Shown: positions 4,608 to 63,098 of the stretch, piece after piece | Layout: each line of letters starts with the position of its first letter | Numbering within the stretch: the first letter of the stretch is position 1 | Assembly: GCF_024298765.1 (NCBI RefSeq) | Contig: NZ_CP101210.1 | From: Escherichia coli | Lineage (GTDB): Bacteria; Pseudomonadota; Gammaproteobacteria; Enterobacterales; Enterobacteriaceae | Strand: one strand, 5' to 3' | Length of the DNA: 64,000 nt | The notes under the pieces: model-generated | The model's input: the letters and a program-made list of their open reading frames with translations, nothing else | The model's database searches: none | What the model was told of the DNA's origin: nothing | Program-made: the position numbers and the translations under genes

Positions 4608-5659
4608 TGCTACGCGAGTGTGATTACAGCCAGGCGCTGCTGGAGCAGGTGAATCAGGCGATTAGCGATAAAACGCCGCTGGTGATTCAGGGCAGCAATA
4701 GCAAAGCCTTTTTAGGTCGCCCTGTCACCGGGCAAACGCTGGATGTGCGTTGTCATCGCGGCATTGTTAATTACGACCCGACCGAGCTGGTGATAACCGC
4801 GCGTGCCGGAACGCCGCTGGTGGCGATTGAAGCAGCGCTGGAGAGCGCCGGGCAAATGCTCCCCTGCGAGCCGCCGCATTATGGTGAAGAAGCCACCTGG
4901 GGCGGGATGGTCGCTTGCGGGCTGGCGGGGCCGCGTCGCCCGTGGAGTGGTTCGGTCCGCGATTTTGTCCTCGGCACGCGCATCATTACCGGCACTGGAA
5001 AACATCTGCGTTTTGGTGGCGAAGTGATGAAAAACGTTGCCGGATACGATCTCTCACGGTTAATGGCCGGAAGCTACGGTTGTCTTGGCGTGCTCACTGA
5101 AATCTCGATGAAAGTGTTACCGCGACCACGCGCCACCCTGAGTCTGCGTCGGGAAATCAGCCTGCAAGAAGCCATGAATGAAATCGCCCAGTGGCAACTC
5201 CAGCCATTACCCATTAGTGGCTTATGTTACTTCGACAATGCGTTGTGGATCCTCCTTGAGGGCGGCGGTGGATCGGTAAAAGCAGCGCGTGAACTGCTGG
5301 GGGGCGAAGAGGTTGCGGGTCAGTTCTGGCAGCAATTGCGTGAACAACAACTGCCGTTCTTCTCGTTACCAGGTACCTTATGGCGCATTTCCTTACCCAG
5401 CGATGCGCCGATGATAGATTTACCCGGCGAGCAACTGATCGACTGGGGCGGGGCGCTACGCTGGCTGAAATCGACAGCCGATGACAATCAAATCCATCGC
5501 ATCGCCCGCAACGCTGGCGGTCATGCGACCCGCTTTAGTGCCGGAGATGGTGGTTTTGCCCCGCTACCGGCTCCTTTATTCCGCTATCACCAGCAGCTTA
5601 AACAGCAGCTCGACCCTTGCGGCGTGTTTAACCCCGGTCGCATGTACGCGGAACTTTGA
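4607..5659 (+). CDS. glcE: Glycolate oxidase FAD-binding subunit
   Basis: 350-aa ORF; start overlaps glcD stop (ATGA-type overlap at 4605-4609). Confidence 0.93.
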   Translation: MLRECDYSQALLEQVNQAISDKTPLVIQGSNSKAFLGRPVTGQTLDVRCHRGIVNYDPTELVITARAGTPLVAIEAALESAGQMLPCEPPHYGEEATWGGMVACGLAGPRRPWSGSVRDFVLGTRIITGTGKHLRFGGEVMKNVAGYDLSRLMAGSYGCLGVLTEISMKVLPRPRATLSLRREISLQEAMNEIAQWQLQPLPISGLCYFDNALWILLEGGGGSVKAARELLGGEEVAGQFWQQLREQQLPFFSLPGTLWRISLPSDAPMIDLPGEQLIDWGGALRWLKSTADDNQIHRIARNAGGHATRFSAGDGGFAPLPAPLFRYHQQLKQQLDPCGVFNPGRMYAEL

Positions 5660-9495: not shown

Positions 9496-9850
9496 TAGCG
9501 TCAAAAAAAGCCCCGGCAAGATTTATTGTCGGGGCTATGATAGTAACTGCGGTAGTACATTTATCCCGGAAATAACCGGAGCGATTATCAGGGGTTAACA
9601 ATATTAAATACCCGTAGCGCATCACTAGCGGGATTAAAACAACAATATGGACATCTTAACGATACTCTGCGCCTGCGTGTGCGGAACAGAAACCCTTACC
9701 CGATATACTTGTTATGCCAGAGGTAGCAATTGCGTTAGCGGCGTACTGTTGCTGTAAAGTATAACGCCTATATTTTACAGTTCAGTCCTCTTTTGCTTAT
9801 TACAACCTTAAGTATATCAAGCATATAAAGATAATAAGAGACTGAACAAT

Positions 9851-35425: not shown

Positions 35426-36106
35426 TCACAGGTTAAAGGTGTTGATAAGTTTATGGATGAAAGAGAAATGTGGCAGGGCGGAGATAAAACGCTCTTCAGC
35501 GACCAGACTGTGGATGTGGCCTCTCCGTTCAAACCGTTCTGATGTCAGGCTGACTGATTTGATATCTGCCAGAGGAAAGACCTGCAGTTTTCCCTTCTGT
35601 AACGCGATCAGATACCAGCTACCGCTGTAATAAATGAGCCGGCAGGGCTCCAGTGACGGATACCATCGCTCAGTCATCAGAGAGATGTGGATACACTGTC
35701 TTATTGCCAGGATGAGTTGCGAGAAACACTCGGGGAACGTTGCAGTGATATCCGGCGCCGGTAGCCAGATAAGGCAGGGAGAGGGCTCCTGGTTGTCGGT
35801 AAGACAGGTTATCAGTCGTCCGTTCCGGAGCGGAAGTATCCGTGCGATCCCGGTATTCTGTATAAAAGAAAGCATTTCAGGGATCGCACCTGGGCTGCTC
35901 TGTCGTCTGAGGCTGTACCTGCCATTTCTGTACTCTAAATCCAGGTGAACCAGACGCTGATGAAAATCGCGCTGTAAAGTACGTTCTGTAACGCCAAATT
36001 CATCTGACAGTGTTTTTAGTGACAGAGATTCTCCGGCCATCAGTCGGCTGATAATGAGTGATAAGCGAACCGCCAGGCGATCATGCCGGGAACGATTATC
36101 AGACAT
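35426..36106 (-). CDS. HTH + WYL-domain transcriptional regulator (YfjR-like)
   Basis: MSDNRSRHDRLAVRLSLIISRLMAGESLSLKTLSDEFGVTERTLQRDF... N-terminal HTH, C-terminal ...GSWYLIAL... WYL-like segment. Confidence 0.7.
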   Translation of the reverse strand: MSDNRSRHDRLAVRLSLIISRLMAGESLSLKTLSDEFGVTERTLQRDFHQRLVHLDLEYRNGRYSLRRQSSPGAIPEMLSFIQNTGIARILPLRNGRLITCLTDNQEPSPCLIWLPAPDITATFPECFSQLILAIRQCIHISLMTERWYPSLEPCRLIYYSGSWYLIALQKGKLQVFPLADIKSVSLTSERFERRGHIHSLVAEERFISALPHFSFIHKLINTFNL

Positions 36107-36308: not shown

Positions 36309-37193
36309 TCAGAACAGACGATCCCACAGTGTGACCAGCAAGTGGATAATGCGGTCCCGGGCCTTACGCAGAAGCTGTAACATCCAGGCCGGAAAGCTGA
36401 ATTGGGCAACGGCAGCGTCAAAGCTTTTCCCGATGGCGTCACCAAAAGTTTGTTGTGCGTGTTTCCGGGCCTGTTCAGAGCGGTTTTCCCCCCGGATATG
36501 TGAATAAACTGCGCTGGTTGCCTGTGGTGGCAGTGCGTGGATCATCAGCGACACCAGTGCCGGAAGATTCCAGCCGACAGGTGCGGCAACGGAGAGTACC
36601 GGAAATGATGACGGGAACAGGGGTGCCACCCGGGCTGTTACTGTCGCCAGTGAGAGTTCCTGCTGACGGGACGGGCATTTTTCTGTGTCGTTCCATTCTT
36701 CAGCAGGAAACACGCGATCGGCATGGCTGAGAACAAACAGAAAACGCGAGGGATCTGCACCTTCATTCAGTAAAAACTGATGCATGGCAATATCAGCAGC
36801 ATACGCACGTTCATCAGCCCGCAGGATCCAGATAATCAGATCCAGTTCCGGCAGTAACTGACGGTAAAGCTCCCGGTATTCCTGATCATGCTGCGGTGTC
36901 TCACCAATGCCGGGCATATCGACCAGCGTCATTCTGCGTTCACCGAGCTGCAGGGTAAGACGATGAGCCTGGCGGGTGCAGCCGTTCAGGGGATGCGTGG
37001 CGCAGATACGGGACTGAAAAATGGCATTACACAGACTGCTTTTGCCGGTGCCGGATTTACCCATAATGCCAATTACGGGCTCGTAATGAATAACACCGTG
37101 GAGATGTTCAAGGATTTTCTGGCGAATTTCTTCAGGAAGAAACGTCAGATATGATTTTACTTGTGCAGAGAGGGAAGAATGGCTGAATGACAT
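36309..37193 (-). CDS. GTP-binding protein (YfjP/YkfA/YeeP family)
   Basis: G1 motif GIMGKSGTGKSS, G3-like DMPGIGE; 294 aa. Confidence 0.8.
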   Translation of the reverse strand: MSFSHSSLSAQVKSYLTFLPEEIRQKILEHLHGVIHYEPVIGIMGKSGTGKSSLCNAIFQSRICATHPLNGCTRQAHRLTLQLGERRMTLVDMPGIGETPQHDQEYRELYRQLLPELDLIIWILRADERAYAADIAMHQFLLNEGADPSRFLFVLSHADRVFPAEEWNDTEKCPSRQQELSLATVTARVAPLFPSSFPVLSVAAPVGWNLPALVSLMIHALPPQATSAVYSHIRGENRSEQARKHAQQTFGDAIGKSFDAAVAQFSFPAWMLQLLRKARDRIIHLLVTLWDRLF

Positions 37194-37377
37194 ACCGGTA
37201 TCCTGTTGATTTCGCTGAACCGGATCACACTAATCCGGTTTATCATTCAGGTAATATGGACGTGAAAAATGATGGAATGTCTGAATTACGGACATGATTG
37301 TTAAAGTGTAATGGAGTATGAAGTGAGTTTTTCCGAACGGGAACTAATGACATACTGCGGTTTCAGGAGATGAGAGG

Positions 37378-38508
37378 ATGACCGGACGTAAAAACAAATG
37401 TGTCAGAAAAAATTGTAACAATCAGGTTTTCTCAGTAAAAATGGCAGTGGAGAAAAGACTGTGCAGAAAACATTATGAGAGGTTTTGTGAGCTCAAAAAA
37501 AGAAGAGAGCAAAATCCTGTTCACAGATTAAATGAAGCATTGCCAAGAAAGATAAAAGGACCAAAAAGTAAGAAAAAATTAGTAAAAGAAAGAGAAATCA
37601 TTAACAGCAGAAAAAAACATAAACAGGAGCAGGGACCATCGCTGACTGAACTTAATAAAAAAGTTCGTGAGATACTGAAAACTCCTGCATGGAGAACGCT
37701 GGAAACGAGAATTCGAAGAAACGGAATCACATTTAACTCAAAAGCAGAGTTAGATGCGCTTTCTGAACTTTATGCAATTTATTCATGGGTTTCATATTGC
37801 AAACGGGGCGATAATTATTCTGTGTGGTTTTTGAATTGTCCGGATGTAAATATAAACCTTCATGTGTGCGAATGCCGGTCTTCTGAAAGCGATTGTTATC
37901 TGCCATCTCGTTTTATTATTCTTCCAGCTCCATTAAGGCAAAAAGTAAAAAGAAAATACTCGGCTAATTCGTCTGGGGTACCAGGACATAATGATTCAAA
38001 AAGTCTTTATAAGACAGTTTTGTCTGTTTGTGGTGGGAAAAGAGAAACCGAAATGTTCTTTTATTCATTGCCAGTAAAGACTAATCATCATCCTTACTGG
38101 ATTAAAAGTGGTGTGGTTAAAAGATTCCCTCCTGTTTTTGGTTTGTTGTTTTATGAACAGGAAAGATTAACAGGAGGTGTTTTTCGTTATGTGTTGATAA
38201 GATTTTATAATACTTTTAAAGAGAATTTGTTTTTTGTTGAGATTGTATCGTGCTGTTTTCTTGTTGAGCTTTTTCATGATATTGATTCATTTTTTATAAA
38301 TCAACGATTAAGTAAGCTGGAAAGTTTTATAGATAAGTGGAGGGAGGGTAAAGAAATCTGGATAAAAGTATATTTACAACTGATACATACTATATTGGGA
38401 ATAACTGAAACAGAAAAACTCGTCAATCTATATAATTCATTTTTTACTGATAAAGTGGTTCTCTGGGATGAATCAGTAAAAAAAGTTAAGTGGATTTATG
38501 AGAAATAG
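37378..38508 (+). CDS. Hypothetical Lys-rich protein with Cys-rich N-terminus (orphan)
   Basis: 376-aa ORF, strongly AT-rich by eye; N-terminus CVRKNCNNQ...CRKHYERFC; no recognisable homolog. Confidence 0.45.
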   Translation: MTGRKNKCVRKNCNNQVFSVKMAVEKRLCRKHYERFCELKKRREQNPVHRLNEALPRKIKGPKSKKKLVKEREIINSRKKHKQEQGPSLTELNKKVREILKTPAWRTLETRIRRNGITFNSKAELDALSELYAIYSWVSYCKRGDNYSVWFLNCPDVNINLHVCECRSSESDCYLPSRFIILPAPLRQKVKRKYSANSSGVPGHNDSKSLYKTVLSVCGGKRETEMFFYSLPVKTNHHPYWIKSGVVKRFPPVFGLLFYEQERLTGGVFRYVLIRFYNTFKENLFFVEIVSCCFLVELFHDIDSFFINQRLSKLESFIDKWREGKEIWIKVYLQLIHTILGITETEKLVNLYNSFFTDKVVLWDESVKKVKWIYEK

Positions 38509-40013
38509 TACCATTTAACTGAAAGCCACCATAACGTCTTTTTGACTACATTTATGATAATGCGTCTCATTTTGTTTTCGTTTTTTTGTTCAGGGAAATT
38601 TTCCGAACATCAGTGATAATGAGGGTTTTGTTGTTTTTGTTTCTGCAATGTTTGAGGACTGTTCCTGGAGACGATTCGTTGCTTGTGAGCAAGAGGTGGT
38701 CCGCTTTACTGGACAAGTTTTGCATTTGTTGAGTGGTGAAATGGAAGTAAAAAGAGCCCCTTTCTGGCAATGGTTGAAAAAGTCAGTAGCGTGTGACAGT
38801 AAAAGCTAACATAAAGTGATTATCGTATGATTATGACAATGACTTATAACTTTTATGAAAAGAACAACAGAAACTACGAAGCCATAGCAGATTCCTGAGA
38901 CCATGTTTTCTGAGGTAGAGAAAATAATTCCAGAGTAAATCTGTTCTGTTTTTAGGACAGAAAACTCCATGCTGGCTGTAAAAGTGAAAAATTAACACCC
39001 AGTATGTATGGAAGTCTGAAGATGTTGAGAATGTCGGTATGATACTATATACACATATTTTACTAAGTATTTTTACTAAGCATTTCAGTAAGTGTTATAC
39101 ACGTATTTTCATAAACACTTCTACAATTGTTTTCGTTAAGCATTGCTATACACATCCAGTTTAGTAAATCTTTACGTTAACTAAATCAGTTTAATGCTGC
39201 TGTAAAACCTTTCTGCTTCAGCAATCAATCTGCTATTCGATTTTACTGATGTTACGTTTAACCTTTCCTGAGATTTCGAGTTTCGACGTTAGCATGAGAA
39301 AAGTATCTTTACGCTAAATCAACCCGAACTTTCCTGAAGTAATCTGACGTTCTTTTCGATGTGCTTACAACGATTCTGTTAAATGACTTTCTGGATGTTT
39401 TGATAACAATCAGATTTAGGCATTAACGATTCCTGACGTTTTTCTTTTCCGTGTAAGGTCATTGTTTTCGTCATGAGGTTTCTTCTTGCATTGCGAAAGT
39501 GTGATGAACGGTTTTGGTGTTTTGATTCAGATGAAGTTTACGTTATCGATGGTTAATCGTTTTTATGGTGCGTAGTGAAACGTAACGCTTTCAGGAAGGG
39601 AAAATCGATTCTGATGGGGATGATCGTGTAACGGCGTTATCTGTAAACAGGTTTTAAACATGTCATTCGCATCCGTGATTGAGTTGTGTGATTAAGCTGT
39701 AGGTTTTGGGGTTGTTGTTGATTTGCATTACCAGGAAGCGTTCTGGTTGCGTTTCTGGTGTTTTGTTTGAATGTTCTGTGGATCCTTTTCCCTTCTGACT
39801 TTTCTCGTTGTCTATGTCGTTTTTAAATCCATTCGCTGTTCTTGAGTGTTTTTACCCTGTGTGTAGAATTATCTTTTCGTTCCGGGATGGTTTGTTCCGT
39901 TTCAATCACTCTTAATCAGAAAGTTGTAGCATTGCTCAATGCCGGATGCCGTAAAGTTTTACCGCGGTGATTAATGATGTGAAGTCAATCCAAATCAACG
40001 GAGATCTCTCATC

Positions 40014-40745
40014 ATGAATCAACCAATACACAATGCTTACTGGTTATCCCGTTTTGACAGCCTTCTCGACAGTGCCCTGGCGCAGCACCGTGCCGTCTCG
40101 TTAATCCGGGTGGATTTACGTTTCCCTGAGTATATGCCTGTCACCATCATGGATCCCGATCCGGATTCAGCGGTGATTTCTCGTTTTTTTGCATCCCTGA
40201 AAGCCAAAATTCAGGCTTACCAGCGGAAAAAAAGATGTGCCAATCAGCGTGTGCATGCAACCAGCCTGGGTTATTTCTGGTGCCGGGAGTTCGGCAAGAT
40301 GTATGGCAGGAAACATTATCACGTGATATTACTGCTCAACAAAGATACCTGGTGCTCGCTCGGGGATTTCAGCGAACCGTCTTCGCTGGCGACGATGATC
40401 CAGGAGGCATGGTGCAGCGCCCTGCATCTTGAGCCCTGGCAGGGTAATGGACTGGTTCATTTTTCCAGGCGGACGCCTTTCCGTAAACCGACATCATCTG
40501 ATGCTCGCCCTTCTTCCGATGATACGCCTTTGTCGGGTGGATGTTCTGAAACCAGGAAGGTTTCAGACAAAAAGTCTGGTGAAGCCGCTGTTCTCTGGAT
40601 CAAGCGTGGTGATGTGGAAGCGATGCAGAAAGCCCGGAACAGAGCCAGTTATCTCGTGAAAAATGAAACGAAGTTGCATGATGGTTCAGGTCAACGTAAT
40701 TATGGTTGCAGTCGTGGGCCGGGGCGTCTACTGGATGGCAGGTGA
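40014..40745 (+). CDS. YfjJ/YagK-like (inovirus Gp2-family) protein
   Basis: 243 aa MNQPIHNAYWLSRFDSLLDSALAQHRAVSLIRVDLRFPEY...; resembles prophage-island YagK/YfjJ proteins. Confidence 0.6.
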   Translation: MNQPIHNAYWLSRFDSLLDSALAQHRAVSLIRVDLRFPEYMPVTIMDPDPDSAVISRFFASLKAKIQAYQRKKRCANQRVHATSLGYFWCREFGKMYGRKHYHVILLLNKDTWCSLGDFSEPSSLATMIQEAWCSALHLEPWQGNGLVHFSRRTPFRKPTSSDARPSSDDTPLSGGCSETRKVSDKKSGEAAVLWIKRGDVEAMQKARNRASYLVKNETKLHDGSGQRNYGCSRGPGRLLDGR

Positions 40746-41111: not shown

Positions 41112-41615
41112 TTATTGATAGTGTTTTATGTTCAGATAATGCCCGATGACTTTGTCATGCAGCTCCACCGATTTTGAGAACGACAGCGACTTCCGTCCCA
41201 GCCGTGCCAGGTGCTGCCTCAGATTCAGGTTATGCCGCTCAATTCGCTGCGTATATCGCTTGCTGATTACGTGCAGCTTTCCCTTCAGGCGGGATTCATA
41301 CAGCGGCCAGCCATCCGTCATCCATATCACCACGTCAAAGGGTGACAGCAGGCTCATAAGACGCCCCAGCGTCGCCATAGTGCGTTCACCGAATACGTGC
41401 GCAACAACCGTCTTCCGGAGACTGTCATACGCGTAAAACAGCCAGCGCTGGCGCGATTTAGCCCCGACATAGCCCCACTGTTCGTCCATTTCCTCGCAGA
41501 CGATGACGTCACTGCCCGGCTGTATGCGCGAGGTTACCGACTGCGGCCTGAGTTTTTTAAGTGACGTAAAATCGTGTTGAGGCCAACGCCCATAATGCGG
41601 GCAGTTGCCCGGCAT
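41112..41615 (-). CDS. insB: IS1 InsB (expressed as InsAB by frameshift)
   Basis: ...[64 protein letters not shown]... Confidence 0.9.
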
Positions 41616-41809
41616 CCGACGCCATTCATGGCCATATCAATGATTTTCTGGTGCGTACCGGGTTGAGAGGCGGTGTAAGTGAACTGTAGTTGCCATGTTT
41701 TACGGCAATGAGAGCAGAGATAGCGCTGATGTCCGGCAGTGCTTTTGCCGTTACGCACCACGCCTTCAGGAGCGGAGCAGGAAGGACATCTGATGGAAAT
41801 GGAAGCCAC
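41534..41809 (-). CDS. insA: IS1 InsA
   Basis: [43 protein letters not shown]... Confidence 0.9.
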
Positions 41810-42072
41810 GCAAGCACCTTAAAATCACCATCATACACTAAATCAGTAAGTTGGCACCATTACCTGACCAAGCTTCCTCTATTGCGGCACCTGATTGCAT
41901 CAATATCGAAAGTGATAAGATCCTCTCACTAGCAGGGCATGACAAGTGTAACTGCTGATTTGTTAGCCTGTTTTAAGTTTTTTAAGATCAATTATTTCTC
42001 ATTTTTTGACTTTATTGCTAGCCGTGAAAATGCAAAGCCTATAGGATACAAAAATTACAATTTGTAGGTTTT

Positions 42073-42579
42073 GTGAGTCATATGAAGGCAACCAATATAG
42101 ACCCTCAACTGCTTGAAAAAGCCACGAGTATCTTTGCTGAGTTGGGCTTACCTATTGAGCAGGCTATTAACGTCTTTTTAGCTAAATCCGTTCAAGCCAA
42201 AGGTTTTCCGTTTTCTGTTGCTCTTGAAAATGAAGTAGAGACACGGGAAGTTGCACAAACGCAACACAATATCAGCAATGCAGAGATAACCGAAGCTATC
42301 CAAGACTTGGTTGAACATGCTCTACCACTGAGTGAAATAGAAAACCTCACGCAGCTAACCTATTGTCGCAACATTTTTGGGTTGTCATTCCCCGTGCTCA
42401 AACTGGCTAAATCATCACGGCCAGAAGACATTCGCAGTGCAGCCAAAGATGCCAAAGAGCGAAACCGCTACTCCACCACTAAAGTGGCCCAGCGAGATGA
42501 AAAAACCTATGTTATTTGCACCCAATGGACCGACAGACATCGTTCTGCATTTTGCCGTTGGCAAGCCATCTTTAGCTAG
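42073..42579 (+). CDS. RelB/DinJ-like antitoxin-domain protein with C-terminal extension
   Basis: N-terminus MKATNIDPQLLEKATSIFAELGLPIEQAINVFLAKSVQAKGFPF resembles DinJ/RelB RHH antitoxins; ~90-aa C-terminal extension unrecognised; no adjacent toxin ORF. Confidence 0.5.
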   Translation: MSHMKATNIDPQLLEKATSIFAELGLPIEQAINVFLAKSVQAKGFPFSVALENEVETREVAQTQHNISNAEITEAIQDLVEHALPLSEIENLTQLTYCRNIFGLSFPVLKLAKSSRPEDIRSAAKDAKERNRYSTTKVAQRDEKTYVICTQWTDRHRSAFCRWQAIFS

Positions 42580-42645
42580 AACGCAAAATAATAACCAAAC
42601 AATACACTGATTTTTTAACGATTTAACTTCATTTAGGTAGTATCA

Positions 42646-44625
42646 ATGAACTTACAAGACAAAGAACAAAGCGCCAAACTCTCCAGTGCTATTTGGCGTA
42701 TGGCAGATGATTTATGGGGTGATTTCAAACACACCGATTTTGCGCGGATTATCCTGCCATTTTTGCTACTGCGTCGTATTGAATGCGTGTTAGAACCCAC
42801 CCGTGAGGAAGTTCGTAAGTTCTATCTGGCCGAAAAACAATCCGGCATAGACCTTGGTTTAGTGTTGCCAGAAATTGCGGGATTCGCCTTTTACAACACC
42901 AGTGAATATAGCCTAGAAACCTTAGGCGCGTCAGACACCGGCGACAACCTAGAACACTACATCAGCCAGTTCAGCAAAAACGTTCGTACCATCTTTGATG
43001 AGTTTAAATTTGGTCAAACCATAGAAGATCTGGAAAAAGCCAAGTTGCTGTATCGCATGGTAAACCATTTTGCCAACCTCGACTTGCATCCTGATGTAGT
43101 GTCTGACCGCGTATTATCAGATGCTTATGAAGAGCTGATTCTAAAGTTCGCCAGTTCGGTTAATGAAAAGGCCGGGGAATTTATGACCCCGCGTGATGCC
43201 GTGCGTCTTGCCACCAAACTGGTGCTGGCGGCGGATGAAGATATCTTTAGTGAAAAGGGTGTGATCCGCACCATCTATGACCCAACCTGTGGCACGGGCG
43301 GTTTCCTTTCCGATGCCATTAGCCAAATTGAAGAAATGGGCAGCAGCGCTAAAGTCGTGCCTTTTGGTCAAGAGCTCGACCCCGCGACCCATGCCATGGC
43401 GCTGACCAATATGATGATCCGCGGTTTTGATGCCAATAACATCAAGCAAGGCAACACCTTATCAGACGATCAGTTACGTGCCGACAAGTTTCACTACGGC
43501 CTTGCCAACCCGCCATTTGGCATTAAGTGGGAAAAAGCCAAGAAAGAAGTAGAACGTGAGCACAAACAGCTCAAATACGCCGGACGCTTTGGGCCAGGCC
43601 TGCCGAGTATTTCTGATGGTTCAATGCTGTTTTTACTGCACTTGGTATCAAAAATGGAAACGCCGGAAAATGGTGGTGGCCGAGTGGGTATAGTCCTTTC
43701 TGGCTCGCCACTGTTTAATGGCGATGCAGGCTCAGGCCCATCAGAAATCCGCCGTTGGCTGCTAGAACAAGACTTAGTCGAAGCGATTGTTGCCCTGCCA
43801 ACCGATATGTTCTTCAACACCGGCATTGGCACCTACATCTGGATTTTGACTAACCATAAAGAGCCAAGACGCAAGAATCAGGTGCAACTGATTAACTTGG
43901 CAGATATTTGGACTCCCATGCGTAAATCGCAAGGCGATAAGCGCAAGTACCTGAGTGATGAACAGATTGACGATATTGTCCGTGCGTACGATGGCTTTGA
44001 AGCCAGTGACAACTGTAAGATCTTCCAGACTACTGATTTTGCCTACCGTAAAGTCACCATTCAGCGTCCACTGCGTGCCAAACTAGATATTACCGCTGCG
44101 GGCATTGCTGCATTTGTGCAGCAAGATACGTTTAAAAAACTCAAACCAGAGCAACAAGCGGCATGGGTACAATACCTCACCGATAACCTTGGCCTTCAGC
44201 CTTATGAATGGGCACGTTTGGCGGTTAAGAAGAATAACAATAAGGGTGACTTTGGTAAGTGCTCAAAAGCACTGGCTACGGCCTTAACTGCGCACTTTGT
44301 AAAAATTGATCCGCAATTTGAGCCTGCACTGGATGAAAAAGGCCAAGTGATCGCCGACCCTAAACTCAAAGACACCGAAAGCATTCCTTTTGACCGCGAC
44401 GTTGAAGATTACTTCGCACAAGAGGTGCTGCCACATGTACCGGATGCCTTTATTGATCACTCAGTGCGTGATGAAAAAGACGGCGAAGTGGGCATTGTCG
44501 GTTATGAAATTAACTTTAACCGCTATTTCTACCAATACGTGCCACCACGCGAGTTGAGTGTGATTGATCGTGAGCTAAAAGCATGTGAAGCGCGCATTCA
44601 GGCTCTGCTGAATGAGGTGGCGTAA
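42646..44625 (+). CDS. hsdM: Type I restriction-modification system, DNA methyltransferase subunit
   Basis: AdoMet motif DPTCGTGGFL and catalytic NPPF (GLANPPFGIKWEK); 659 aa. Confidence 0.9.
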   Translation: MNLQDKEQSAKLSSAIWRMADDLWGDFKHTDFARIILPFLLLRRIECVLEPTREEVRKFYLAEKQSGIDLGLVLPEIAGFAFYNTSEYSLETLGASDTGDNLEHYISQFSKNVRTIFDEFKFGQTIEDLEKAKLLYRMVNHFANLDLHPDVVSDRVLSDAYEELILKFASSVNEKAGEFMTPRDAVRLATKLVLAADEDIFSEKGVIRTIYDPTCGTGGFLSDAISQIEEMGSSAKVVPFGQELDPATHAMALTNMMIRGFDANNIKQGNTLSDDQLRADKFHYGLANPPFGIKWEKAKKEVEREHKQLKYAGRFGPGLPSISDGSMLFLLHLVSKMETPENGGGRVGIVLSGSPLFNGDAGSGPSEIRRWLLEQDLVEAIVALPTDMFFNTGIGTYIWILTNHKEPRRKNQVQLINLADIWTPMRKSQGDKRKYLSDEQIDDIVRAYDGFEASDNCKIFQTTDFAYRKVTIQRPLRAKLDITAAGIAAFVQQDTFKKLKPEQQAAWVQYLTDNLGLQPYEWARLAVKKNNNKGDFGKCSKALATALTAHFVKIDPQFEPALDEKGQVIADPKLKDTESIPFDRDVEDYFAQEVLPHVPDAFIDHSVRDEKDGEVGIVGYEINFNRYFYQYVPPRELSVIDRELKACEARIQALLNEVA

Positions 44626-45911
44626 TGAATGCTGGCAACATAGTAGATGCTTTCGTATCTGACTCGAAATGGAACTCAGTACCAGCTAAACGTTTATTTA
44701 CGAGTAGCAAAGAAATCAATCAAGGAATGAAAGAATCTAATCGTCTTGCACTAACAATGAAAGGTGTCATAAACCGCTCGTTAGACGATTTACAAGGACT
44801 TCAATCTTCTGATTACTCTGTTTATCAGATTTTTGAAAAAGATGACTTAGTTTTTAAGCTCATAGATCTTGAAAATATAAAGACTAGCCGAGTGGGGATT
44901 GTGCATGAACGAGGAATAATGAGCCCTGCATACATCCGTGTTTCAGCGAGTTCAAATAGCATCTACCCAAGGTTCTATTACTGGTACTTTTTTGCTCTAT
45001 ACCTAACCAATATTTATAACAAACTGGGTGGAGGAGTTCGTCAGAACCTAACAGCTGGTGATCTTTTAGAAATACCTGTTCCACTGATTGATATTTCATT
45101 ACAGAAGCAGGTTAGCACATTCCTTGATCGCGAAACCCAGCGCATCGACAGTCTGATCGAGGAAAAGCAGACCTTTATTAAGCTGCTCAAAGAAAAACGC
45201 CAAGCACTGATCAGCCATGTGGTCACAAAGGGGCTCTATCCCAATGTGGAGATGCAGGACTCTGGCATCGAGTGGATTGGGCAAGTGCCGAAGCATTGGG
45301 AAGTCAAAAAGATAAAGCATATTTGCTCCAACTTTATGTATGGAACCTCTCAAGACTGTAACCAGTCTGATGTTGGCTATCCTGTTCTCAGGATACCAAA
45401 CATCAAGAGTACCAATGTTGATTTTGAAGATCTCAAATATGCAAATATCAGTGATGTTGATGCTTTAACTTATCTTTTATCAAGAGGCGACATTTTAGTC
45501 ATCAGAACTAACGGTAACCCTAATCTGGTCGGCCAAAGCGCGCTTTTTGATTCAAATGGGCAGTATTTATTTGCGTCGTACCTAATAAAGTTAACACCAA
45601 AGCAAGGAGTGGATACTAGCTTCTTAGTGGAAGCGATGAACTCACTATCTGTTCGTCAAGCATTAACATTTCAGTCAAGAACATCGGTAGGTAACTACAA
45701 CCTGAGCATTCCTTCACTAGCTAATACAAGTATTGCTATCCCACCAATTGATGAGCAAAAGACAATAACGAATTACTTGAGTGCAGCAACGATAAACATT
45801 GATTTACTGATTCAAGAGACTGATAAATCGATTGATCTTCTAAAAGAACACCGCACATCGCTGATCAACGCGGCTGTCACAGGAAAAATAGACGTCAGGG
45901 AGGCGGTGTAA
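44625..45911 (+). CDS. hsdS: Type I restriction-modification system, specificity subunit
   Basis: 428 aa with two target-recognition domains separated by conserved repeats (LIEEKQTFIKLLKEKRQALISHVVTKGL / LLIQETDKSIDLLKEHRTSLINAAVTGKIDV); start overlaps hsdM stop (TAATG). Confidence 0.85.
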   Translation: MNAGNIVDAFVSDSKWNSVPAKRLFTSSKEINQGMKESNRLALTMKGVINRSLDDLQGLQSSDYSVYQIFEKDDLVFKLIDLENIKTSRVGIVHERGIMSPAYIRVSASSNSIYPRFYYWYFFALYLTNIYNKLGGGVRQNLTAGDLLEIPVPLIDISLQKQVSTFLDRETQRIDSLIEEKQTFIKLLKEKRQALISHVVTKGLYPNVEMQDSGIEWIGQVPKHWEVKKIKHICSNFMYGTSQDCNQSDVGYPVLRIPNIKSTNVDFEDLKYANISDVDALTYLLSRGDILVIRTNGNPNLVGQSALFDSNGQYLFASYLIKLTPKQGVDTSFLVEAMNSLSVRQALTFQSRTSVGNYNLSIPSLANTSIAIPPIDEQKTITNYLSAATINIDLLIQETDKSIDLLKEHRTSLINAAVTGKIDVREAV

Positions 45912-51670: not shown

Positions 51671-52057
51671 CTATAAAGGATTATCCATCTTAAAATCGTC
51701 GATATCGCCTGTCATTTTGAATAGATTGGTGTCATTCCAACGGCACAGTTGTCTAACCCGCATTAGATTTGAGTTGGCTCTGCGGATTATTGAGAAAGCA
51801 TCTTCAACAGCAGTAATCACCGATTTTTCCCAATCTTGTGCTCGGGTAAAGGTGCTTTGTGAATAGCGATAATTGCCCTCACGGGGGAGGTAATGGCTGA
51901 TCACCTGGTATTTGTCAGAATTCTTTTTAGGTTTAAACTCGTTGTAAACCCAGAAAATTTCGAGTTTTTTGTTTCTTTGCCTTACACGACAACCAAAATG
52001 ACCTGGGTAGCCTTCAGAGTTTTTACCTCTATGTGCAACGTTGTTCAGCCAGAACAA
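51671..52057 (-). CDS. Hypothetical protein (possible gene fragment, TTG start)
   Basis: 128-aa ORF with non-ATG start; no homolog recognised; upstream in-frame sequence closed by a stop. Confidence 0.25.
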   Translation of the reverse strand: MFWLNNVAHRGKNSEGYPGHFGCRVRQRNKKLEIFWVYNEFKPKKNSDKYQVISHYLPREGNYRYSQSTFTRAQDWEKSVITAVEDAFSIIRRANSNLMRVRQLCRWNDTNLFKMTGDIDDFKMDNPL

Positions 52058-54986: not shown

Positions 54987-57729
<2,743 letters not shown>

Positions 57730-58237
57730 CGTAAGTAAAATCAGCCACCCACAGCTGGTCAGGTCGTTCTGCCACGAACTGACGGTTTACGCGGTCGCCT
57801 GCGGCAACGGCTTTCCGGCTGATGGTCGTACGGACCTTTTTACCCCGGAGAACACCGGCAAGTCCCATAACCGCCATGAGACGTGCCACTGTACATCTGG
57901 CCACCCTGATTCCTTCCCGTAACAACTGACGCCAGACTTTACGCACACCGTACACCTGATGATTTTCATCGTATACGCGCTGTATCTCTCTCTTCAGCCA
58001 GTCGTCGTGCTGCGCACGGGCACTGCGTTTATCCGGATGATGTCGCTGTTGCTGACAATGGTAATACGTTGACGGGGCAATATGCAGTTCGCTGCATACC
58101 GGTCCGACCCCGTACTGCTCACGCAGCTTATCCAGCAGTGGCATCATTTTTCCAGAGGCGGTCGAACTCCGCCTTCGCAAAATAAGCGGAAGCCTGGCGA
58201 AGGATATCGTTACTGCGGCGCAGTTCACGATTTTCAC
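57730..58237 (-). CDS. IS3 transposase OrfB, 5' exon (upstream of intron)
   Basis: ...[73 protein letters not shown]...[10 protein letters not shown] then intron. Confidence 0.8.
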
Positions 58238-62300: not shown

Positions 62301-62630
62301 TTACCCGAAGAAGGTAAAGCCCTCAAGAGGCAGTAACTCAGCCAACCTCTCCTCCGGCCACTCCGGCAGACGCGTCAGGACGTCCGTCAGCCAAGCATGT
62401 GGCTCCAGACTGCGGTTCCCAGAAGGCTCATTATCTGTGCCGCGCGGTTCCCGGCCATCAGTGAACCAGCGAACAACCAGGCCTTTCGTCCCATAACGAC
62501 CAGACGGATAGCACGCTCGCAGATATTGTTGTGTGTGCCTTGAAATGCACGATCTTTCCGTCGGTGAAAGTCCGCCCCGGCTAACTCTCGCTCCGACTGG
62601 AAGGACAAGAAGCGGTCCAGGAGGTAACAA
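62301..62630 (-). pseudogene. IS66-family transposase C-terminal fragment (frameshifted)
   Basis: Two overlapping frames carry ...NNICERAIRLVVMGRKAWLFAGSLMAGNRAAQIMSLL... and ...HAWLTDVLTRLPEWPEERLAELLP..., matching the conserved C-terminus of IS66 TnpC as I recall it. Confidence 0.5.
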
Positions 62631-63098
62631 AAGGGCTGAATCTCTCCCTGAAACGACTTCTTCAGGAAGTCAACGGGTTATGCGGGCCGTAATGTGAGTG
62701 AACACTGAGCAGCCATCGAAATGCCGTCGAGGGTGCTGACACGCCACAATAACGGGGAAGGCCGACGATGACCGGGAAGAGAGTGAGAAAGGCATCGGTC
62801 ATACCCACCGGGGTTGTGGTGTCAGCATGCATAACAATTGATCGATCGTGCAACAAGAGAAGTCCATAACGATGTCTGTCCGGGTGACGGGCAACAACGC
62901 CTCGCGAGGGGGTGAATCGGTTGTTATGGATGGCAGATGGGGTGTAGTAGTGAAAATACTGAGTAATGTCAGAGGAGCGAAGGCCCCCTCTTGCAGTACC
63001 AGTGTAACATGCAGGAAGAGCCCGGGGATTGCCATCAGCCTCACAACCCCGCTCGAACCGGTTCAGAACCTACAGAAAACACTACAGGAGAAAGCAAA

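Follow-up and report, generated by a model that had tools for sequence, protein, structure and literature searches.

A conserved gene-free module upstream of a Gp2-family gene in Escherichia coli genomic islands as candidate cis-acting control DNA

We describe here a conserved non-coding module of 1,093 bp (38921–40013, + strand) that, in E. coli genomic islands, accompanies a gene of the YfjJ/YagK ("inovirus Gp2") family. We judge it about an even call that 38921–40013 controls a conserved backbone module of these islands in cis. On our best reading of its parts it would comprise operator- and iteron-type control DNA together with the promoter and leader of the Gp2 gene, and it may in addition act as an origin for the nickase that this gene is predicted to encode. 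Coordinates refer to the window, by which we mean the whole 64-kb stretch of E. coli DNA that was analysed.

The module lies in a gene-free gap bounded by the stop codon of a 376-aa ORF (38508) and the start codon of the Gp2-family gene (ATG at 40014). The initial annotation had marked this gap (38509–40013) as 1.5 kb of AT-rich sequence carrying only short ORFs. Its coordinates are correct and every ORF within it is at most 67 aa long, the longest being on the - strand at 38567–38770. The gap has a GC content of 37 %, with local values of 0.30–0.40 as against ~0.5 in the flanks; being AT-rich relative to the host (63 % vs about 50 %), it is a putative H-NS target. The + strand is G+T-rich (T 36.8 %, A 26 %, G 21 %, C 16 %). 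Comparison between loci indicates that these limits in fact merge two different things, a cassette-linked left part (38509–38920) and the conserved module (38921–40013). The 412-bp left part, which is outside the module, is the non-coding 3' flank of a variable cargo cassette: it is 97–100 % identical only in loci with the 376-aa ORF (L002, L008 and L009) and unalignable (about 40 %) in the others. The ORF itself (37378–38508, + strand) is an orphan forming an alternative cargo cassette between the GTPase gene and the module. Other islands have unrelated ORFs swapped into this slot, and neither the 376-aa ORF nor the other variable ORFs left of the tract have a Pfam, NCBIfam or PADLOC (defence-system) match.

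The module was matched in 1,879 of 5,426 complete E. coli genomes at 72–100 % identity, always directly upstream of a YfjJ/YagK family gene and ending at its ATG. The left edge is sharp at ~38921 in most matches, whatever DNA adjoins it on the left, with most E. coli matches beginning at query position 412–414 (38920–38922 of the window). Across ~2,600 copies, with alleles up to about 28 % diverged, the length of the module stays at ~1.0–1.2 kb. Alignment against related islands, proposed in the initial annotation as a check, shows the tract to be conserved across them. The contrary case, a decayed pseudogene lacking conservation, does not describe what we find, which is a ~1.1 kb module in hundreds of divergent islands with no protein remnant. 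Four plasmid records contain the tract, three over the full 1.1 kb at 72–96 % identity and one over the last ~150 nt only, and these we read as putative island fragments. No phage homologues of the tract were found, and a scan of genome contigs for close relatives yielded no more than two loci, which are of the E. coli type.

The island is of the CP4/P4-integrase type, as had been supposed. A YfjP/YeeP-like GTPase gene (36309–37193, - strand; assigned from annotation and NCBIfam GTPase matches) is the first of a backbone operon that diverges from the Gp2 side. In Brenneria, Providencia and Morganellaceae the Gp2–AlpA and GTPase-to-CbtA operons, the latter with the order GTPase–HTH/WYL–antirestriction–DUF932–RadC–CbtA, diverge around a 400–750-nt gap, and other relatives have gene-free gaps of 370–1,360 nt. 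Judged by this synteny, the E. coli tract appears to be an expanded version of the Gp2(-AlpA)/GTPase-operon divergent gap. The yfjI–yfjJ region of the K-12 cryptic prophage CP4-57 is alike in the YfjJ family, the island type, the yfjP GTPase, yfjQ DUF932 and yfjR genes, and the antirestriction, RadC-like and toxin-antitoxin genes, but there yfjJ follows yfjI after 150 nt, is co-oriented with the GTPase operon, and the region has no homology to the tract. A mobI(A/C)-annotated gene is present elsewhere in the island studied here.

The gene to which the module is attached (40014–40745, + strand) encodes a protein that matches Pfam REP_ORF2-G2P and whose fold matches NS1, Rep, SIRV1 Rep, Helitron and IS608 TnpA. 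The HUH motif residues H101 and H103 are present in at least 90 % of 17 family members, K216 is invariant, and the catalytic tyrosine Y212 (YxxK) is found in all full-length members. With these hallmarks of the HUH superfamily, the protein is predicted to be an HUH Rep-like nickase. Its sole 'phage' match, an unverified node, is 4.5 kb long and of low coverage. A second Gp2 subfamily, unrelated to this one, has its own unannotated, T-rich upstream tract of 0.8–1.1 kb in about 1,370 genomes; homology of the present tract to that of the second subfamily, or to the K-12 yfjI–yfjJ region, was rejected on negative blastn and nhmmer searches.

The short repeated motifs described in the initial annotation are all located in the gap. 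ATACAC occurs at 39049, 39097 and 39148, each time on the + strand, TTTTACTAAG is present twice alongside TTCAGTAAG, and TTGTTTTCGT is found at 38572, 39127 and 39461. Over the whole window ATACAC is not enriched (24 occurrences vs 21.9 expected). A degenerate tandem array with a period of 12–13 nt and a double unit of 24–25 nt, made up of the elements TACAC(R)T and TTTAC-TAAG, was identified at 39046–39165 (+ strand) by Tandem Repeats Finder and autocorrelation, the former reporting a 12/13-nt array at 39056–39109 with the consensus TATTTTACTAAG. Autocorrelation peaks at lags of 12, 24 and 25 are present in 11 loci, and the periodicity is thus a property of divergent copies too. The array is preceded by a nearly invariant block, GTCTGAAGATGTTGAGAATGTCGGTATGATACTAT (39014–39048, + strand), which has a mean identity of 0.90–0.95 across 15 loci in surroundings of 0.7–0.85. 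All 17 related loci have 3–6 same-strand TACAC units at the same offset, with copy number varying between islands and whole-unit indels apparent in the alignment. Neither the array copy number nor the core allele is linked to the Gp2 allele, loci L008 and L013 having the same protein and 3 and 6 units, respectively. TTTAC/GTAAA half-sites number 14 where 3.9 are expected (0/1000 dinucleotide shuffles), and six of these sites are kept in at least 10 of 11 copies. The array, its retention and the half-site excess therefore place the tract beyond chance.

The palindrome GTAAA-N2-TTTAC has only two matches in the 64 kb, both inside the tract (0.07 expected; 0/100 shuffles reach two). The distal palindrome, GTAAATCTTTAC (39164–39175), is one of these two matches; L003 has it twice, and an insertion interrupts it in some alleles. 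The proximal palindrome, GTAAAGTTTTAC(C) (39951–39963), is a candidate operator 52–63 nt upstream of the Gp2 ATG, and GTAAAGTTTTAC is found at -63 to -52 in 17 of 17 E. coli-type loci. Outside this type GTAAAGTTTTAC is exact only in Providencia, where the 13-mer GTAAAGTTTTACC is identical at 5620–5632 of L023, within the Gp2–alpA gap; the Brenneria and Morganellaceae counterparts differ at 2 positions, and elsewhere the site is missing. As a conserved palindrome near the promoter that would be regulated, which is how an operator is recognised, GTAAAGTTTTAC is a putative binding site. A further palindrome or hairpin, GCATTG-CT-CAATGC (39929–39942), keeps its position in 9 of 12 divergent copies. 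Another allele has GCCATTG-N8-CAATGGC at this place, with the additional G in one arm matched by an additional C in the other, and the change appears to be compensatory.

The earlier idea that the repeats might be iterons stands in the sense that the repeats are real and, from the array, half-site and palindrome statistics, are best read as putative protein-binding sites of iteron or operator type. Like iterons, they are tandem direct repeats kept across homologues (17/17 loci), with degenerate units. TTTAC sites upstream of integrase genes, as expected for an excisionase-type binder, are practically absent. An unbiased cross-genus hexamer test gave no significant shared motif, and an ACACAT motif seen by eye in the Brenneria, Providencia and Morganellaceae gaps was discarded when it failed this enrichment test.

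The last 85 nt before the gene (39929–40013, + strand) form a nearly invariant Gp2-proximal leader that is 94–98 % identical, compared with 88–94 % at the third-codon positions of the Gp2 gene. A Shine-Dalgarno GGAG at 40000–40003 overlaps a GATC site. The candidate sigma-70 promoter for the Gp2 gene, TTGAGT-16-TAGAAT (39842–39869, + strand; 9/12 in a consensus scan), is semi-conserved, other alleles having TTGCGT/CAGGAT and TTGTGT/TAGGTT. Promoter-like sites in the region do not exceed those in shuffles (three vs 4.7 expected). A regulatory leader, as raised in the initial annotation, is plausible for the last ~140 nt before the YfjJ-like gene. The putative Gp2 leader at 39876–40035 shows no excess of folding over shuffled sequence (z -1.2).

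Outside the last 85 nt the tract is a recombination mosaic whose divergence is at or above the third-codon-position (synonymous) rate of both flanking genes, and most of its positions are therefore weakly constrained. Invariant runs in the core barely exceed chance length. A middle section of ~300 nt (39451–39760) is dispensable: it is deleted in L014 and L015, a 176-aa ORF stands in its place in L007, and other genomes have IS insertions there. Fast divergence, the removable middle, the near-chance core runs, the promoter scan and the negative hexamer test are all observations that speak against a control function.

Several tests show the tract to be non-coding. Among 11 divergent copies, no ORF of 12 aa or more persists in more than six. 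We rejected a small protein (41 aa in the window) encoded across the array: similar ORFs exist in several loci, but about half the loci lack the start codon, the reading frame shifts in the upstream part, and the amino acids vary freely. The ORF is a by-product of the 12-nt unit being stop-free. We also set aside the 57-aa minus-strand CDS called by PGAP (an 82-aa ORF at 39663–39909 in some loci), which is absent or disrupted in the window and in most alleles; the small PGAP CDSs in the tract are lineage-specific. A decayed yfjI or other backbone gene was likewise dismissed, tblastn of island backbone proteins giving only E values above 0.5.

If the module is control DNA, one or more island-encoded DNA-binding proteins would bind its sites, occupying the palindromes as dimers and the direct-repeat array cooperatively. 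We see three candidates: the HUH protein, the HTH/WYL regulator of YfjR type that belongs to the divergent operon (35426–36106), and a protein of the AlpA/Xis type. The bound proteins would set Gp2 expression from a promoter within the last ~170 nt, and AT-richness would probably add H-NS-type silencing. The literature searched holds no transcript or binding data for the tract. Small winged-helix proteins of the Xis/Cox/Vis/AlpA type bind tandem direct repeats about one helical turn apart, and the array has a similar period of ~12–13 nt. Moreover, the gene immediately after Gp2 in Providencia, Morganellaceae and Brenneria is alpA, and the shared 13-mer is upstream of the Providencia alpA. In this window, however, no alpA adjoins the tract, and the array is not beside an attachment site.

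We regard it as possible, though improbable, that the module is instead the origin at which the adjacent HUH nickase starts replication or transfer. This protein would bind the array and nick one strand nearby, for example in the hairpin-rich left edge or in the invariant proximal block, leading to rolling-circle replication of the excised island or to its mobilisation as single-stranded DNA. The adjoining protein is a credible predicted nickase of the HUH Rep type, and its closest structural relatives, parvovirus NS1 and AAV Rep, bind tandem short repeats beside a hairpin that bears the nick site. The succession of hairpins (38928–39013, z -3.9), conserved block and tandem array seen here resembles that at NS1/AAV Rep sites. 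At HUH Rep origins such as the parvovirus/AAV Rep-binding elements and the bind and nic loci of pMV158-type rolling-circle plasmids, as in the tract, tandem short direct repeats near a hairpin adjoin an HUH nickase gene (NS1/Rep fold), but the unit of the tract is 12–13 nt and degenerate, it lies ~850 nt from the gene, and no nick-site motif is identifiable. Ff-type filamentous phages have a large intergenic region directly upstream of gene II, which encodes their replication-initiator nickase. The tract is similar in being a non-coding region of several hundred nucleotides upstream of a nickase gene annotated 'inovirus Gp2', with a T-rich strand, but it is twice as long, has no sequence similarity to any phage and no series of strong conserved hairpins, and its tRNA-integrated island has a tyrosine integrase and no morphogenesis genes. 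The oriT of R388 or RP4 is found between divergently transcribed operons and has direct and inverted repeats for accessory proteins. The tract, too, is flanked by divergently transcribed backbone operons, as many oriT regions are; antirestriction, RadC and toxin-antitoxin genes abound in one of these operons, and the tract has direct-repeat arrays and palindromes; unlike R388 and RP4, it has no recognised relaxase family or known nic consensus, and the backbone genes beside it point away from it, an outward-pointing arrangement unlike that of the leading-region genes of F-type plasmids. The T-rich, C-poor + strand would suit a strand that spends time single-stranded, and the possession by two Gp2 subfamilies of their own unrelated ~1-kb tracts is as expected of cognate origins. 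Set against this, short hairpins are positionally conserved but their stems change register (hairpin 1 does so, with pairing in only 55 % of cells) and no conserved loop motif was seen in them; the core evolves fast; its allele and the array copy number vary independently of the nickase (L008 vs L013); the K-12 yfjJ gap is only 150 nt; and the mobI(A/C)-annotated gene hints at a different oriT elsewhere in the island. We hold it distinctly unlikely that the module serves, more specifically, as cognate origin for an HUH initiator of inovirus type that has been domesticated and that binds the array and nicks after excision. Nicking at the TTTAC/TACAC array would in that case drive rolling-circle replication of the island circle or, alternatively, supply the island as single-stranded DNA that could be transferred or could hitch-hike in the particles of a helper.

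It is very unlikely, in our estimate, that the tract encodes a non-coding RNA, whether an sRNA in the core or a long structured cis-acting 5' leader of the Gp2 mRNA. The hairpin-rich segment at the left edge of the module (38928–39013, + strand) is the only strongly folding one: its RNA adopts a Y-shaped fold (MFE -30.8 kcal/mol; z -3.9, with 0/200 shuffles as good; DNA z -2.4) and holds the conserved inverted repeat TCCATGC...GCATGGA. The G+T richness of the + strand may fit a sense-strand transcription bias, and a leader element could lie in the almost unchanging 85 nt that precede the ATG. Yet pairing of the Y-shaped fold (74.6 % of cells vs 74.3 % in shuffles) and its covariation score (reached by 61/500 shuffles) are not above background, and the RNAalifold consensus for the segment is weak (-9.3 kcal/mol, covariation term -0.8); a structured RNA at 38928–39013 was rejected on this lack of covariation. 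A covariance-model scan against Rfam 15, another check named in the initial annotation, gave no match to the tract at gathering or permissive thresholds, the five hits at E up to 5 being far-sub-threshold chance matches (best STnc550, 18 bits vs a gathering threshold of 48). Promoter- and terminator-like sites show no excess over shuffles (for terminators, one vs 1.3 expected), and no promoter/terminator pair flanks the conserved core as an independent sRNA gene would have. The earlier suggestion of an sRNA or structured RNA thus finds no backing in these searches. The tolerance of repeat-unit indels and 300-nt deletions and the poor folding of the putative leader also count against an RNA. 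The remaining alternative, that the tract is mostly functionless AT-rich acquired spacer, perhaps a pseudogene too old to recognise, which is merely carried along with the Gp2 gene and ends in 100–170 nt of ordinary promoter and RBS, we consider unlikely. Divergence at or above the synonymous rate, the mosaic structure, the dispensable middle with its tolerance of inserted genes and IS elements, the near-chance invariant runs and the negative cross-genus motif test speak in its favour. On the other side, bacterial genomes have a deletional bias, and yet a length of ~1.0–1.2 kb is held in ~2,600 copies; long gene-free tracts recur upstream of the unrelated Gp2 subfamily and in distant relatives; the half-site and palindrome statistics are significant and the sites positionally conserved; and no protein trace was found.

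The function of the backbone genes of islands of this kind is still called unknown (PMC6174562; bioRxiv 10.1101/2024.08.29.610337). We find that the Gp2-family gene, predicted to encode an HUH Rep-like nickase, is always preceded by a long, gene-free, repeat-bearing tract, and that this putative control region is syntenic across Enterobacterales. The question of island regulation, maintenance and movement is now tied to defined sites, namely the array at 39046–39165 and the palindromes at 39164 and 39951, and position 38921 marks the edge of a cargo-swapping hotspot. Most E. coli genomes have islands with a P4-like integrase, AlpA, YfjJ/YagK, a YeeP/YfjP GTPase, antirestriction, RadC and CbtA genes, and the cargo of these islands serves virulence, defence and resistance. 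Should the tract be no more than promoter and spacer, its interest would be one of local annotation, and the small PGAP CDSs inside it are probably spurious. If it is the cognate origin of the Gp2 protein, the two Gp2 subfamilies with unrelated 1-kb tracts would be separate specificity groups, and common 'cryptic' tRNA-associated islands, usually deemed immobile remnants, would gain a replication or mobilisation mechanism of their own.

A gap of 1,505 nt, here called the tract, separates the 376-aa orphan ORF (stop codon at 38508) from the YfjJ-like gene (ATG at 40014). As the initial annotation described, it is AT-rich (GC 0.30-0.40 versus ~0.5 in the flanks), lacks ORFs above 67 aa, the length of the longest that we find, and contains all of the short repeated motifs named there; that observation is confirmed as a whole. 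The + strand is 36.8 % T, 26.0 % A, 21.0 % G and 16.1 % C. Conservation among related islands holds for the right part, from ~38921, and fails for the left 412 nt, which are linked to the neighboring cassette. BLAST matches the tract in 1,879 of 5,426 complete E. coli genomes, at up to 7-8 places per genome, with at least 80 % of its length covered in only 421 of them. Most matches have an abrupt left edge at query position 412-414 (~38921 in the window) and end at the start codon of the Gp2-family (YfjJ/YagK) gene, with 72-88 % identity. The left 412 nt are found at 97-100 % identity only in loci sharing the 376-aa ORF. Because one related locus, L008, drops from 97 % identity left of 38921 to 80 % on its right, this position is a recombination breakpoint.

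The layout is constant in the 14 related loci that we fetched: a YfjP/YeeP-like GTPase gene (36309-37193, - strand, in the window), one or two unrelated hypothetical ORFs, a gap of 1.45-2.4 kb and a Gp2-family gene (40014-40745, + strand). The interval that separates the GTPase gene from the conserved module (38921-40013) looks like a cargo-swapping hotspot. In 36309-38920 and its equivalents in loci L003-L015, unrelated AT-rich hypothetical ORFs that differ by island (376 aa in the window, 407 aa elsewhere, or convergent pairs of ~316 and ~262 aa) lie between gene and module, with a common end at 38921. These variable ORFs have no match in Pfam, NCBIfam or PADLOC. Several alleles (L004-L006, L010-L013) carry, at the equivalents of 38774-38940, a + strand ORF of 44-58 aa that is absent from the PGAP annotation and ends exactly at the module boundary (...RKIIPE-stop, from AGAAAAATAATTCCAGAGTAA); its N-terminal parts are unrelated families, and the window keeps only an 11-codon remnant. 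On the other side of the Gp2 gene, 41112-45911 holds typical defence cargo: an IS1 copy, a gene for a 168-aa protein whose N-terminus resembles RelB/DinJ, and type I restriction-modification genes (hsdM-like, 42646-44625; S subunit, 44625-45911).

The tract is non-coding. No ORF of at least 40 aa is common to the panel of related loci, and among 11 divergent copies none of at least 12 aa has its start, stop and frame intact in more than 6. Proteins of CP4-57 and of the island backbone, used as tblastn queries, give no match in the tract. The small CDSs placed there by PGAP in some genomes are lineage-specific and frame-shifting. A seemingly conserved open frame across the repeat array was rejected as a protein: about half of the loci lack the start codon, the amino acids vary freely, and the frame is open because the 12-nt repeat unit is stop-free.

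The array itself (39046-39165) has a period of 12/13 nt and a double unit of 24/25 nt, lags at which the autocorrelation of 11 loci peaks; Tandem Repeats Finder reports it at 39056-39109 with the consensus TATTTTACTAAG. Whole units are gained and lost between islands, each of which has 3-6 TACAC units, all on one strand and at an unchanged offset. Counted across the window as a whole, ATACAC shows no enrichment (24 versus 21.9 expected), but its three copies in the tract all lie on one strand within 105 nt. TTTAC/GTAAA occurs 14 times in the tract versus 3.9 expected, a count reached in 0 of 1000 shuffles, and six sites are retained in at least 10 of 11 copies. The paired form GTAAA-N2-TTTAC has exactly two matches in the 64-kb window (39164 and 39951; expected 0.07), the proximal of which is present in 17/17 E. 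coli-type loci. The 13-mer at this site, GTAAAGTTTTACC (39951-39963), recurs identically in Providencia (L023/L024, 5620-5632) between a Gp2 homologue (~38 % identical) and alpA, and Brenneria (-58) and Morganellaceae (-176) have versions with two mismatches upstream of Gp2. Across 70 kb of non-E. coli loci, three of the six matches with up to two mismatches fall in Gp2-adjacent gaps, which make up ~8 % of the sequence. We propose GTAAAGTTTTACC as a candidate conserved operator for a DNA-binding protein. Nearby are a palindrome, GCATTG-CT-CAATGC (39929-39942), which shows a compensatory change in the other allele (GCCATTG-N8-CAATGGC), and a semi-conserved candidate promoter, TTGAGT-16-TAGAAT (39842-39869). 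A cross-genus ACACAT motif spotted by eye failed an unbiased test.

The 243-aa Gp2 protein matches Pfam YagK_YfjJ_C (1e-35) and, weakly, REP_ORF2-G2P, and an alignment of 17 family members reveals a conserved H101-x-H103 followed by hydrophobic residues and a conserved Y212-L-x-K216. From these features the family, whose function the literature calls unknown while counting it among the core genes of integrase+AlpA islands, is predicted to be a Rep-like HUH nickase. The E. coli subfamily has a ~45-residue insert (residues 153-189; 40470-40580), rich in Ser, Pro, Asp and Lys and predicted to be disordered (pLDDT below 50), which is missing from the 189-207-aa relatives in other genera.

At >60 % identity the Gp2 subfamily is essentially confined to E. 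coli. Relatives in Brenneria, Providencia and Morganellaceae (35-47 % identity) keep the synteny, with CbtA, RadC, DUF932, antirestriction, HTH and GTPase genes in an operon on one strand, then a gene-free gap of 400-750 nt, then Gp2 and AlpA on the opposite strand; further relatives have gaps of 370-1,360 nt. The E. coli tract thus appears to be an enlarged version of this divergent control region, which has in addition taken up cargo cassettes. A second E. coli Gp2 subfamily has its own conserved, unannotated, T-rich upstream tract of 0.8-1.1 kb in ~1,370 genomes, likewise with variable cargo at its left boundary and with no homology to the present tract. Its proteins ('inovirus-type Gp2' / YagK-YfjJ domain, 188 aa) are only 18-22 % identical to the first subfamily, and its tracts (L001 21710-22675; L020 4029-5328; L021 4192-5301) over-represent TATCCAT, GATAA and TTTACT, words unlike those of the module. 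K-12 yfjJ is an exception, with an upstream gap of just 150 nt.

The initial annotation suggested that the tract might hold sRNAs or a long regulatory leader. An sRNA or other structured RNA finds no support; a regulatory leader of the Gp2 gene is plausible within roughly the last 140 nt. Rfam gives no match to the tract, whether the window is scanned at gathering thresholds or the tract itself at E up to 5; elsewhere in the window it detects C0719 sRNA (294 bits), group II intron domains (the matching genome has ltrA alongside) and the ALIL pseudoknot of an IS3-family element (9551-9772, 55460-55546 and 58073-58188, - strand; 62558-62697, + strand). Promoter- and terminator-like sites in the tract are no more numerous than in dinucleotide shuffles, and the putative leader of Gp2 is no more stably folded than its shuffled versions. 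The folding scan has a single outlier, a Y-shaped + strand fold at the left edge of the module (38928-39013, z -3.9), for which RNAalifold on 13 distinct homologues gives a weak consensus; pairing for the window structure is 74.6 %, against 74.3 % in shuffles, and covariation shows no excess. We consider an RNA gene or riboregulatory leader very unlikely. That the tract is mostly functionless spacer is also unlikely, if less so. Compared with the window, the core (38921-39450) is 0.77-0.87 identical, the middle 0.80-0.88 and the proximal part 0.70-0.92, against third-codon-position identities of 0.78-1.00 (mostly 0.88-0.94) in the GTPase gene and 0.88-0.97 in the Gp2 gene. For most of the tract, divergence thus equals or exceeds the synonymous rate; this sequence is a mosaic of old alleles and is weakly constrained. 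Some 300 nt (39451-39760) are missing in two loci (L014, L015), a gene takes their place in L007, and other genomes have IS elements inserted in the tract. The final 85 nt (39929-40013) are the sole part more conserved (0.94-0.98) than coding sequence. Even so, the length of the module is maintained at 0.86-1.2 kb in 17/17 loci.

The main rival, which we hold to be rather unlikely, is that these sites serve the HUH protein as its origin or nick region. The arrangement of hairpins, conserved block and tandem repeats agrees with this, as does the biology of the protein's closest structural relatives. A passage in bioRxiv 10.1101/364505 would be compatible with such an element excising and replicating. 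However, no conserved nick hairpin was found, allele linkage lends no support, and an island ORF annotated mobI(A/C) by RefSeq (51671-52057, - strand; no NCBIfam HMM match) hints at a different transfer origin. The best-supported reading, to which we give about an even chance, is that the tract is protein-binding control DNA; it is built on the demonstrated non-coding nature, linkage, synteny and site statistics, from which we infer binding, the identity of the binder and an effect on expression. Island-encoded DNA-binding proteins would occupy the operators and the iteron-like array, the Gp2 gene would also have its promoter and leader in the tract, and H-NS-type silencing would probably act on it. 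The literature searched contains no description of the tract, which is an uncharacterised member of a familiar element type, the repeat- and palindrome-bearing regions that act as control DNA or origins of mobile elements. It is very common and supplies defined sites for testing the regulation or replication of "cryptic" islands.
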